Part shown: one piece after another, positions 18,761 to 41,012 of the stretch
Layout: each line of letters begins with the position of its first letter
How positions within the stretch are numbered: position 1 is the first letter of the stretch
Assembly (NCBI RefSeq): GCF_003334815.1
Contig: NZ_QOWO01000027.1
Origin: Escherichia coli
GTDB taxonomy: Bacteria > Pseudomonadota > Gammaproteobacteria > Enterobacterales > Enterobacteriaceae
Reading direction: 5' to 3' (one strand)
DNA length: 56,519 nucleotides
The notes under the pieces: model-generated
Told to the model about the DNA's origin: nothing
Databases searched by the model: none
Seen by the model: only the letters and a program-made list of their open reading frames with translations
Program-made: the position numbers and the translations under genes

Positions 18761-18890
18761 AGTGTGGTAGAATATCAGCTTACTATTGCTTTACGAAAGC
18801 GTATCCGGTGAAATAAAGTCAACCTTTAGTTGGTTAATGTTACACCAACAACGAAACCAACACGCCAGGCTTATTCCTGTGGAGTTATAT

Positions 18891-19220
18891 ATGAGCGATA
18901 AAATTATTCACCTGACTGACGACAGTTTTGACACGGATGTACTCAAAGCGGACGGGGCGATCCTCGTCGATTTCTGGGCAGAGTGGTGCGGTCCGTGCAA
19001 AATGATCGCCCCGATTCTGGATGAAATCGCTGACGAATATCAGGGCAAACTGACCGTTGCAAAACTGAACATCGATCAAAACCCTGGCACTGCGCCGAAA
19101 TATGGCATCCGTGGTATCCCGACTCTGCTGCTGTTCAAAAACGGTGAAGTGGCGGCAACCAAAGTGGGTGCACTGTCTAAAGGTCAGTTGAAAGAGTTCC
19201 TCGACGCTAACCTGGCGTAA
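18891..19220 (+). CDS. trxA: Thioredoxin 1
   Basis: Track ORF is 144 aa; start placed at [13 protein letters not shown] (ATG 18891, RBS ggag upstream) to give the 109-aa protein with the active site WCGPC. Confidence 0.95.
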
Positions 19221-35864: not shown

Positions 35865-35941
35865 CGGCGAGTAGCGCAGCTTGGTAGCGCAACTGGTTTG
35901 GGACCAGTGGGTCGGAGGTTCGAATCCTCTCTCGCCGACCA
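35865..35941 (+). tRNA. proM: tRNA-Pro (anticodon UGG)
   Basis: cggcgagtagcgcagcttggtagcgcaactggttTGGgaccag...ctcgccgacca. Confidence 0.93.
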
Positions 35942-37481: not shown

Positions 37482-39137
37482 TTAGTCAGATTTAATCTGC
37501 GCGCGTGGTGGATATTTTTTCAGGATCTCCATATACGCGTGCATTTCGGTCTGTAGCGGTACACCCATCGGAATATGGCGCACGCCGATGGAGTCGCTTT
37601 CCTGCGGATCGGTGTAGAGGTTAAACACCGACGATCCCGCCGTTTGCATTACTGTGCCGGTGAATCCACCCTGATATCCGCTCTGGGTATAAGCGTAAGG
37701 TTGCTGAATCAGGACGTGATACTTGAACTCATCCATACGCACAGCAGCGAGTTTACCGTTGAGGAAGTAGTGCTCGGCCTTACGGTTAGACTGACCATTT
37801 GTTCCCAGGAAGAAGGATGTCTGGTCCACACCATCGATAAAGGTGGTTTTCGGCACTAAATTCGCCACTTTCGCTCCAGGATGCCCTGCCAGATCCAGCG
37901 CGGTAGGGAAGAGATCTGCCAGATCGACAATACCGTCAGATTTACGCGGTTGGATCATCCCTTTCCAGTAAACGAAAGTCGGTACGCGAACGCCGCCTTC
38001 CCAGGTCGAACCTTTCGCACCACGGAACGGGGTGCGTCCGTGCGGCGGTACTTCGGCTTCCGGTCCGTTATCGGAGGTAAAGACGATCAGCGTGTTATCA
38101 AGCTGACCGTTTTTCTCCAGTGTTTTATACAGATTAGCGAACACATCGTTCATCTCCACCATGCAGTCGCCATACGAGGTGCGTGCCGGAGAGCTACCCG
38201 CATATTTCGCATTTGGGTAGTTATCGAAGTGGCAGCCACGAGTGCCGTAGTAGAGGAAGAATGGTTTATCGCTCTTCGCCATCTTGTCGAGGAACTTAAC
38301 GCCATAGTCCATCCAGCGTTGATCCAGATCTTCCATATATTTCGGCGTAATGTCGGCAATGGCCTGTTGTTCGCCGCCGCGCACCGCATGAACGTCATCT
38401 TTGCTGAACGGTAATTGCTTGATGTATTCAGAACGGTCCGGACTCAGGGCCACTTCCGGATTGACGTGAACGTCGCGCCATTCGGTGTACATATCAGACA
38501 CCGAGTTAAAGCCACGGAAATCATCAAAGCCAACGTTCTGCGGCTGCGACTCTTTGTTTTCCCCCATATGCCATTTTCCGATGGCCTGAGTGACGTAGCC
38601 CTGATCGTGCAGCAACTGCGGCAGCGTGGTTAACCCTTGCAGCCCGCCCGGTTGCCCGTACATTGGCGGCATCAGAATGCCGTGGTGGATGGAGTATTGT
38701 CCGGTGAGAATGGTGGCGCGGGTTGGGGAAGAGCTTGGTTGAGAATACGCCGAAGTTAAAATCAGCCCCTGGCTGGCAACGGCGTCGATATCTGGTGTAG
38801 GGTTACCCACCGCCACGCCGCCACCGTTAAAACCGACGTCCATCCAGCCCACATCGTCCAGCAAGAAAACAACCACATTCGGTTTCTTACCGGTTTTTTT
38901 CTCAAGTTCTGCCAGCTTCTGCTGGGTTTCTTTATCCTGCGCCGGATGCTGCATTACTGGCATCATATTGTCGGCAATAGTGGTCGCCGGTTTAACCAGA
39001 TACTGGTTTGGGTGATCGTATCCGGCAAAGCCTTTGCGTGCGGTGGCAGTTGACGGGGTATCTGCTGCGCTGGCCATGAGAGGAAGAGCGGCGGCGACAG
39101 CAACAACAAGACGTTTGGGTGAAAACGAAAATTCCAT
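37482..39137 (-). CDS. aslA: Arylsulfatase-like protein
   Basis: 551-aa ORF with an N-terminal signal peptide and a sulfatase fold ([24 protein letters not shown]-type [12 protein letters not shown] motif). Confidence 0.93.
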
Positions 39138-39561
39138 GCAAAATGCTCCGGTTTCATGTCATCAAAATGATGACGTAATTAAGCATTGATAATTGAGATC
39201 CCTCTCCCTGACAGGATGATTACATAAATAATAGTGACAAAAATAAATTATTTATTTATCCAGAAAATGAATTGGAAAATCAGGAGAGCGTTTTCAATCC
39301 TACCTCTGGCGCAGTTGATATGTAAGGCAGGTTTATTATATCGCGTTGATTATTGATGCTGTTTTTAGTTTTAACGGCAATTAATATATGTGTTATTAAT
39401 TGAATGAATTTTATCATTCATAATAAGTATGTGTAGGATCAAGCTCAGGTTAAATATTCACTCAGGAAGTTATTACTCAGGAAGCAAAGAGGATTACAGA
39501 ATTATCTCATAACAAGTGTTAAGGGATGTTATTTCCCGATTCTCTGTGGCATAATAAACGA

Positions 39562-39768
39562 GTAGATGCTCATTCCATCTCTTATGTTCGCCTTAGTGCC
39601 TCATAAACTCCGGAATGACGCAGAGCCGTTTACGGTGCTTATCGTCCACTGACAGATGTCGCTTATGCCTCATCAGACACCATGGACACAACGTTGAGTG
39701 AAGCACCCACTTGTTGTCATACAGACCTGTTTTAACGCCTGCTCCGTAATAAGAGCAGGCGTTTTTTT
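39562..39768 (+). ncRNA. glmZ: Small regulatory RNA GlmZ (glmS activator)
   Basis: Recognised by sequence (gtagatgctcattccatctcttatgttcgcc...), ending in the terminator hairpin gcctgctc...gagcaggc plus a run of 7 T; a -10-like cataat lies 9-14 nt upstream of the proposed 5' end. Confidence 0.85.
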
Positions 39769-39815
39769 ATGTATCAGGAAGGCCCCGGAGGTGCTTGCCT
39801 CCGGGTGAGAAGGAA

Positions 39816-41012
39816 CTACTGTGGCGGGTTATTCTGCAACGTTAACATCAAACCGTCGCGACGCATCGCTGCAGCTTCTTCCGGCTTGTGCAGTCTGTCC
39901 AGCGCGTCGGCAAGCCATGCGTAATCGTAGGCGTCCGGACGTTGTTTCAGCGCTGCGCGGAAGGCGAGCGATGCTTCCTGCCATTCTCCGTGCTTCATCA
40001 GTGACTGGCCCAGTGTGCTCCACAACAGCGGGCGATCGCCGACGTTTTTGATTTGCTGGCGCAGCACTTTTTCCAGCTGTTCCGGATTGTTTGTTTTCAG
40101 TCGAGGAATCGGCAGCAGTAGGCGATCGTCGTACTGGCGTTTCAGGCCATCGATGATAATTTGCTGGGCAGTATCATGATCGTCACATTCAATAAGATGT
40201 TCCGCCATTGCCACCTGCAACGCTACCTGATGACGCGTTTTCCGGCTTTGGTTTTTCCACCAGTTACGCAAACCTTCGCTACCGTTATCGGCACGCGCCT
40301 GATCCATCAGGCCAATCCATGCCTGTTGTTCCAGCATTGCACGATGTTCTTCATCACCAACATGGGCTTTCGCCATTGATGGGATAATATCCAGCAGCGA
40401 ACTCCATGCACCTGTGCGGATATACGCCTGTTCCGCCAGACGTAATACTTCCGGATGGCGTGGCGTAACTTCCAGCAGCTTATCCACGCCGTGGCGTGCA
40501 GCATGGTTTTCATTACGGGCCAGTTGCAGACGTACGCGGGTGATTTCTACCGGAATGGTGTCGTTGCCGGCCAGCTCCGCTGCGCGTTCCAGATGTTGGT
40601 TGGCGCGTGCTTCATCACCACGTTGTTGCGCGGCTTCGGCAGCCAGTAGATAGTTCACCACCGGTTGTTCCGCGTGATCGGCATTTTTCGCCATCAGCTT
40701 TTCAACTTGCTGATAATCGCCTTCCGCCAGTTTCAGCAGCGCCTGTTCGGTCTGCTTACGTGCACGGCGACGCTTACGTCCGACAAACCACCCACGGGTG
40801 TGCGCGCCAGTGCGGAAGATCCGCCGCAGTAGCCACTCAATGGCAAACAGCACTACCATCGCCAGAATCAATATGATCGCCAGGCCCGTGACGCTGGTTT
40901 CGATATTGTAGTTGTCGGTCTGGATCAGCACATAACCCTGATGGCCGGCAATCATCGGGCCAACCACGATCCCCGCAATCAGCAATACAAAGAGCAATAA
41001 CACTTTTAGCAT
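39816..41012 (-). CDS. hemY: HemY (TPR-containing inner-membrane protein of the hem operon)
   Basis: 398-aa ORF with two N-terminal TM segments and TPR-like repeats; last gene of hemCDXY. Confidence 0.92.
   Translation of the reverse strand: MLKVLLLFVLLIAGIVVGPMIAGHQGYVLIQTDNYNIETSVTGLAIILILAMVVLFAIEWLLRRIFRTGAHTRGWFVGRKRRRARKQTEQALLKLAEGDYQQVEKLMAKNADHAEQPVVNYLLAAEAAQQRGDEARANQHLERAAELAGNDTIPVEITRVRLQLARNENHAARHGVDKLLEVTPRHPEVLRLAEQAYIRTGAWSSLLDIIPSMAKAHVGDEEHRAMLEQQAWIGLMDQARADNGSEGLRNWWKNQSRKTRHQVALQVAMAEHLIECDDHDTAQQIIIDGLKRQYDDRLLLPIPRLKTNNPEQLEKVLRQQIKNVGDRPLLWSTLGQSLMKHGEWQEASLAFRAALKQRPDAYDYAWLADALDRLHKPEEAAAMRRDGLMLTLQNNPPQ

Follow-up and report, generated by a model that had tools for sequence, protein, structure and literature searches.

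The small RNA GlmZ, an activator of GlmS, an enzyme for cell-wall precursors, is cut by RNase E with RapZ as adaptor, and its paralogue GlmY titrates RapZ at low glucosamine-6-phosphate. The GlmZ primary transcript comprises 207 nt and is processed to ~151 nt, a step that removes the nucleotides pairing with glmS, inactivates the sRNA and is modulated by GlcN6P (PMC4152352). The gene has been described as lying ‘between aslA and hemY’ and as clustering with hemCDXY (PMC2377431, PMC3045617, PMC4152352). Deletion and point mutagenesis established that the region from -40 to +32 is sufficient for promoter activity and that mutation of the -35 or the -10 abolishes expression; GlrR does not bind at E. 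coli glmZ, whereas the Yersinia and Salmonella genes are sigma-54-dependent with GlrR (PMC3045617). GlmZ is among the best-characterised enterobacterial sRNAs, and its place beside hemY is an already known finding. Another described system that the arrangement calls to mind is the bidirectional intrinsic terminator between convergent genes, which the SEnd-seq work of Ju et al. 2019, as cited in PMC7815308, is said to have reported.

Here we analyse a 56,519-nt stretch of Escherichia coli DNA (contig NZ_QOWO01000027.1 of assembly GCF_003334815.1; hereafter, the window). A sequence-only reading of it had recognised GlmZ at 39562-39768, convergent with hemY, and had proposed that the terminator hairpin of the sRNA may also serve the hemCDXY transcript. 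Following up on this, we arrive at a different arrangement, to which we assign a probability of roughly 92%: glmZ is transcribed from a sigma-70 promoter to a canonical terminator of its own, and the hemCDXY mRNA is independent of that terminator, ending at a hairpin of its own.

The interval encodes GlmZ itself

An Rfam 15 covariance-model scan (cmscan) of the whole 56.5-kb window returned GlmZ_SraJ (RF00083) on the plus strand at exactly 39562-39768, covering positions 1-214 of the 214-position model with 218.4 bits (E=3e-56), as compared to a curated gathering score of 60 bits. The sequence-only reading had named a scan that misses this interval as the result that would speak against GlmZ; instead, the interval was matched end to end and the identification was borne out. 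A permissive rescan of 39100-39900 gave the identical GlmZ_SraJ match. SNORA68, Thr_leader and EF3314_EF3315 also surfaced in that region, at E-values of 0.39-0.89 and far under their gathering scores, and were dismissed as chance matches to the terminator hairpin. The main features of the locus are as follows.

39562-39768, plus strand: GlmZ (SraJ/RyiA) primary transcript, 207 nt; full RF00083 model, with a start that matches K-12 b4456
39816-41012, minus strand: coding sequence of hemY (398 aa), the final gene of hemCDXY; from the open reading frame list and from RefSeq annotation of 100%-identical DNA and of K-12
39816-39818, minus strand: TAG stop codon of hemY

The genes follow one another in the order aslB, aslA, the glmZ interval, hemY, hemX and hemD, identifying the window as the aslB-aslA-glmZ-hemYXDC segment of the E. 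coli chromosome. The open reading frame list and the RefSeq annotation both confirm that glmZ and hemY converge, and the distance of 47 bp that had been read between the GlmZ terminator and the hemY stop on the opposite strand proved correct (39769-39815, 47 nt). A 51-aa open reading frame on the plus strand (39769-39924), antisense to the hemY 3’ end, was without support. The aslA-glmZ-hemY synteny is general within the species: a 761-nt stretch around glmZ is present in all 5426 of 5426 complete E. coli genomes, nearly always as a single copy.

To convert coordinates, 3946870 was subtracted from the K-12 MG1655 position, an offset verified at three points: the start of K-12 glmZ (b4456, 3986432) corresponds to window 39562, the same base as the Rfam start; K-12 hemY (3986686) corresponds to 39816; and the CCA end of proM (3982811) corresponds to 35941, three bases past an Rfam tRNA match ending at 35938. 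Over 1201 bases (K-12 3985800-3987000), the window and MG1655 differ once, at 39867 within hemY, and the stretch 39562-39818, with the 207-nt glmZ and the 47-nt gap, is identical in both. Owing to this near-identity, experimental data from K-12 are directly applicable here. The published primers glmZ -39..-1, +1..+20 and +248..+207 (PMC2377431) likewise match the window sequence.

Despite its near-identity to MG1655 at glmZ, the window comes from another strain, since its ilvG (3688-5334) is an intact 548-aa open reading frame that in K-12 MG1655 is a frameshifted pseudogene. Two further Rfam matches were noted elsewhere in the window. A Rev39_5p_UTR match (157 bits, 3376-3668) overlaps ilvL and the start of ilvX according to the K-12 annotation, and thus represents the ilvLXGMEDA leader/attenuator under a different family name, while a TrxA_thermometer match (78.8 bits, 18821-18920) covers the trxA 5’ UTR and start codon.

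GlmY and GlmZ are ~63% identical and have a two-stem architecture in common (PMC2377431), and one lower-scoring match from the same Rfam clan had been suppressed in our scan, yet the chance that the element is GlmY is practically nil. Of the clan, the GlmZ model scores highest (218 bits); the interval contains the glmS-pairing site that is absent from GlmY (PMC4152352); it is flanked by aslA and hemY instead of lying in the purL/glrK region (PMC3045617); and the K-12 annotation reads glmZ. On these four counts, we reject GlmY. Every testable defining feature of GlmZ is present, and the element is GlmZ (SraJ/RyiA) itself rather than a relative.

The annotated extent of the gene varies between resources. 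The RefSeq feature for K-12 glmZ spans 3986432-3986603 (172 nt) and ends just before the terminator, compared with 207 nt in Rfam and the literature, and the two PGAP-annotated E. coli records inspected (NZ_CP025903.1 and NZ_CP068041.1) carry no glmZ feature. The PGAP omission and the 172-nt RefSeq feature mean that glmZ is under-reported by annotation alone.

Promoter, terminator and processing of GlmZ

Within and upstream of the transcript, we assigned the following elements, with the promoter hexamers read from the sequence.

39526-39555, plus strand: putative sigma-70 promoter of glmZ, with transcription starting at the G at 39562
39526-39531, plus strand: putative weak -35 element, ATGTTA, 18-nt spacer to the -10
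39547-39555, plus strand: putative extended -10 element, TGgCATAAT
39562-39626, plus strand: stem-loop I (Rfam structure line, model positions 1-65)
39634-39707, plus strand: central stem-loop II, common to GlmY (Rfam structure line, model positions 75-151)
39711-39730, plus strand: glmS-pairing site, GlmZ nt 150-169 (RNAduplex against the K-12 glmS 5’ UTR)
39716-39726, plus strand: small hairpin (Rfam structure line)
39734-39768, plus strand: Rho-independent terminator of an 11-bp stem, an 8-nt loop and a T-run (inverted repeat and terminator scan)

Positions 39523-39561 are identical to primer BG184, ‘glmZ -39 to -1’ (PMC2377431). Because the -39..-1 region is thereby the same as in the experimentally dissected E. 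coli promoter, the glmZ promoter of the window would be of the Escherichia/Klebsiella type, that is, sigma-70 only, without a sigma-54 promoter or GlrR sites. A consensus promoter scan did not call the glmZ promoter, which we attribute to the weak -35 and consider a limit of the scan, and no evidence against the promoter.

The AT-rich spacer between aslA and glmZ contains a direct repeat, ACTCAGGAAG-TTATT-ACTCAGGAAG (39460-39484), which lies ~80-100 nt upstream of the glmZ start, within a region shown to be dispensable for the glmZ promoter. In two E. coli strains, this spacer harbours an IS1 element: in L124 (NZ_CP068041.1), the insertion occupies 300-997, roughly corresponding to window 39190-39240, and the other strain is hit H2 of our search. 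At >300 nt upstream of glmZ, both insertions leave the minimal -40 promoter untouched.

The stem of the glmZ terminator is a perfect 11-bp inverted repeat (39734-39744 and 39753-39763) with a T-run extending to 39768. It folds with -19.3 kcal/mol and reaches a T-tail score, calculated in the style of d’Aubenton-Carafa, of 4.3-5.2. A consensus scan of 39100-40000 called it as the sole terminator-like site, on the plus strand only. In untreated cells, plus-strand DirectRNA-seq coverage drops from 1924 to 30 reads across K-12 3986668 (PMC7815308 supplementary file 2), consistent with an efficient glmZ terminator.

Whole GlmZ folds with a minimum free energy (MFE) of -60.8 kcal/mol (z = -3.3), and we take its stem-loop II to be the RapZ-binding region. 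As glmS lies outside the window, its 5’ UTR was supplied by the K-12 glmU-glmS spacer. RNAduplex run on full-length GlmZ against the whole glmS UTR produced a meaningless end-to-end duplex and was replaced by a local computation, in which GlmZ nt 150-169 pair with glmS -40..-22 through two helices (-19.2 kcal/mol), a value equalled by 30 of 2000 shuffles.

For 3’ ends, we drew on the curated Term-seq data of Adams et al. 2021 (eLife, PMC7815308), obtained from MG1655 in LB at OD 0.4, in LB at OD 2.0 and in M63 glucose. The sequence column of this resource gives 61 nt and places the 3’ end at its position 51, a convention borne out by the proM and hisR CCA ends and by the final U of the sgrS terminator. 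Internal GlmZ 3’ ends are recorded at K-12 3986583 and 3986585, which correspond to nt 152 and 154 (window 39713 and 39715), fall within the pairing site and—the sequence being identical to that of K-12—agree with the published processing. At the full-length GlmZ end (K-12 3986638; window 39768, plus strand), no curated Term-seq peak is listed for the three conditions, only the nt 152/154 ends, which presumably reflects that GlmZ is mostly processed under these conditions.

Taken as a mechanism, the 207-nt sRNA is made from a sigma-70 promoter that is constitutive and has an extended -10, and it ends at a canonical intrinsic terminator. Its single-stranded nt 150-169, situated between stem-loop II and the terminator, pair with the glmS 5’ UTR together with Hfq and activate GlmS synthesis, and a cut at about nt 152-154, inside the pairing stretch, inactivates GlmZ. 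The dependence on Hfq, RapZ and RNase E in this scheme is taken over as background.

The hemY mRNA appears to end at a hairpin of its own

Inside the 47-nt gap, we found a second perfect inverted repeat, 8 bp long and GC-rich, that was absent from the sequence-only reading: CCCGGAGG/CCTCCGGG at 39784-39791 and 39798-39805, enclosing a 6-nt loop.

39777-39805, minus strand: hemY-proximal hairpin with a 7-nt tail (inverted repeat; Term-seq end at 39777)

The hairpin proper (39784-39805) starts 10 nt past the hemY stop and has a folding energy of -15.8 kcal/mol. The 50-nt hemY 3’ UTR scores z = -2.4, a value matched by 3 of 200 shuffles, and the hairpin is also present in the MFE fold of a 131-nt minus-strand stretch. 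Its minus-strand tail, GCCUUCC, has a T-tail score of 0.45, and the hairpin is hence no textbook intrinsic terminator.

The sequence-only reading had named 3’ end mapping of both transcripts as a check on its proposal. The published K-12 Term-seq data provide this for hemY, whose end precedes the glmZ hairpin; for glmZ, they hold the processed ends only. Within 39864xx-39867xx, a single minus-strand end is recorded, at K-12 3986647 (window 39777), in all three conditions (PMC7815308 supplementary file 1). It is classed as ‘primary hemY’ and, in the two conditions for which counts are given, is backed by 57,000-77,000 reads. The end lies 7 nt beyond the hemY hairpin, and the first GlmZ-complementary base follows 9 nt later. 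Since this is the only minus-strand end, the stable hemY mRNA ends at its own hairpin, an assignment that is well supported, with one Term-seq study in three conditions as its basis. The SMRT-Cappable-seq supplements contained neither hemY nor glmZ.

Origin of the hemY 3’ end and transcription across glmZ

Whether the glmZ hairpin could be a bidirectional terminator at which the hemCDXY transcript of E. coli ends as well was weighed against these data, and we consider it improbable. The convergent genes are just 47 nt apart, and the hairpin folds no less stably when read on the minus strand (-20.6 kcal/mol), where an A7 run precedes it; a Rho-sensitive boundary sits 8 nt past it, at window 39726, and in 7 of the 102 junctions of other species described below, among the matches listed, no other hairpin fits. 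Downstream of the hairpin in this direction, however, comes AAAACAGG; a U-tract is lacking, the T-tail score is 0.03-1.7, and the terminator scan was positive on the plus strand only. The minus-strand Term-seq end at 39777 comes before the glmZ hairpin in all three conditions, with none beyond it; on the far side (~39726-39733), no minus-strand end is listed for these conditions (PMC7815308). Moreover, hemY has a dedicated hairpin, which a compensatory change preserves in E. albertii. The separate hairpin in the gap, the Term-seq end at 39777 and the reversed tail without a U-tract together speak against a shared glmZ terminator in E. coli, and the proposal that it may also serve hemCDXY is unsupported in this species.

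The end at 39777 itself could arise in more than one way. Given its poor U-tract, the hemY hairpin is probably a weak, non-canonical terminator, or else a stem that protects the 3’ end and to which longer transcripts are trimmed back. The 7-nt spacing from an 8-bp GC-rich stem would fit intrinsic termination, though the tail is U-poor. It is possible, if doubtful, that Rho instead ends hemCDXY transcription at a point farther on, antisense to glmZ, that 39777 marks a trimming or processing product guarded by the hemY hairpin and that neither hairpin is a minus-strand terminator. The U-poor tails of both hairpins on the minus strand speak for this possibility, as does a Rho region with a score of 10.3 at window 39726, and the AU-rich linker UGAUACAUAAAAAAA between the hairpins appears to resemble a single-stranded target of the RNase E type. 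Yet trimming from 3’ to 5’ should stall first at the reversed glmZ hairpin (-20.6 kcal/mol), where no end is recorded; the span scored for Rho takes in the aslA 5’ region, a confounding factor; and intrinsic termination, too, would place the end 7 nt from the stem.

The Rho data derive from bicyclomycin (BCM) treatment (PMC7815308 supplementary file 2) and comprise two Rho-dependent regions that lie just past the two hairpins: one at K-12 3986596 (window 39726) on the minus strand, antisense to glmZ (score 10.3, p=4e-44), and one at K-12 3986668 (window 39798) on the plus strand, antisense to hemY (score 2.8). The scores compare 800-nt windows, and the downstream window of the minus-strand region takes in the aslA 5’ region; as, in addition, its BCM reads are more numerous downstream than upstream (473 > 154), the signal is not cleanly attributable to hemY read-through. 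It nonetheless shows that some minus-strand transcription crosses the reversed glmZ terminator, antisense to glmZ, and is normally curtailed by Rho.

A more far-reaching scenario, and a decidedly long shot, is that hemCDXY read-through past 39777, normally suppressed by Rho, serves as an antisense sponge or cleavage trigger for GlmZ and that, in addition, the terminator is shared in seven species with short gaps. If this were true, the read-through RNA would be a perfect antisense of the GlmZ 3’ region with its glmS-pairing site (39711-39730); by sponging full-length GlmZ or triggering its cleavage, it could link GlmS control to transcription of the heme operon or to Rho activity. In the 7 species whose gaps measure ≤19 nt, the glmZ terminator would then be genuinely shared.

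glmZ-hemY junctions across Enterobacterales

GTDB species representatives were searched with a pattern of GATGCTCAT, 100-128 unspecified bases and ACGTTGAGTGA, which yielded at least 120 loci. By a rough estimate, a 20-base gapped pattern should produce a handful to few tens of chance matches in 298 Gb. Four loci without GlmZ features (L042, L080, L093 and L103), including metagenome-assembled genomes labelled Pontiellaceae and actinobacterium, were removed as such, and the remaining loci among the matches listed are Enterobacterales GlmZ loci. A HemY homologue lies ≤1.8 kb downstream in 101 loci which, together with the window, make up the 102 junctions analysed among the matches listed; most GlmZ loci that lack a HemY homologue within 1.8 kb are ones whose sequence ends downstream.

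Throughout these junctions (102 of 102, among the matches listed), the HemY homologue is convergent with glmZ, and a conserved glmZ position by hemCDXY is also stated in PMC3045617. Between the GlmZ U-tail and the hemY stop, the 102 junctions among the matches listed have gaps of -2 to 1464 nt. A hemY-proximal hairpin of -8.7 kcal/mol or stronger, located between the hemY stop and glmZ and no more than 150 nt beyond the stop, was found in 95 of the 102, again among the matches listed. These hairpins are mutually non-homologous, and many are canonical terminators, such as those of the form AGGAGGCC...GGCCUCCUUUUUU at the Enterobacter and Lelliottia junctions. Salmonella and Citrobacter junctions contain a REP-like-looking hairpin, GCCCGGUGGCGCUUCGCUUACCGGGCCUAC, non-homologous to that of Escherichia. 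In Escherichia, it is the CCCGGAGG hairpin that is found, and E. albertii retains its stem via a double change from G-C to A-U plus one extra pair. The recurrence of non-homologous stem-loops after hemY in different lineages suggests that hemY, as a rule, does not depend on the glmZ hairpin.

As a separate observation, a REP-like hairpin, GCCCGGTGGCGCTTCGCTTACCGGGCCTAC, was noted at the Citrobacter/Salmonella junctions L003, L081, L085, L029, L062 and L013.

In 7 of the 102 junctions, among the matches listed, the gap measures -2 to 19 nt (9 nt in Pseudescherichia vulneris) and leaves no room for a second hairpin:

L065, L014, L017 (Pseudescherichia vulneris) and L032 (Escherichia sp. ESNIH1)
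L100, L008 (Acerihabitans arboris) and L016 (Mangrovibacter yixingensis)

At these seven short-gap junctions, where the glmZ stem-loop is the only hairpin after hemY, sharing it appears plausible; the reversed tail in the short-gap species is again UUAAAACAGG-like.

Discussion

With glmZ well characterised and its position beside hemY published, the discovery value of the locus is small. What changes is the picture of the junction: the tail-to-tail pair of glmZ and hemY corresponds to two adjacent stem-loops, and not to one shared terminator.

Relative to GlmZ of K-12 (RF00083), the element itself shows no difference. The 207 nt and the 47-nt gap are identical, as are the start base, the promoter, the glmS-pairing site, the processing positions, the terminator and the aslA-glmZ-hemY context, and only the host strain differs, in its intact ilvG and one substitution in hemY. 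GlmY (RF00128, of the same clan, CL00011) is homologous over its 5’ two-thirds, with stem-loops I and II, but lacks the glmS-pairing stretch that GlmZ possesses and acts as a decoy.

With bidirectional intrinsic terminators, the locus has in common a convergent gene pair, a short gap and a strong hairpin. In contrast to them, however, the glmZ hairpin is devoid of symmetrical A-tract and U-tract flanks, so that a U-tract is not available on both strands, and the 3’ ends of glmZ and hemY lie at two hairpins rather than on opposite flanks of one. As both of these defining features were looked for and found to be absent, we do not class the glmZ hairpin as a bidirectional terminator.
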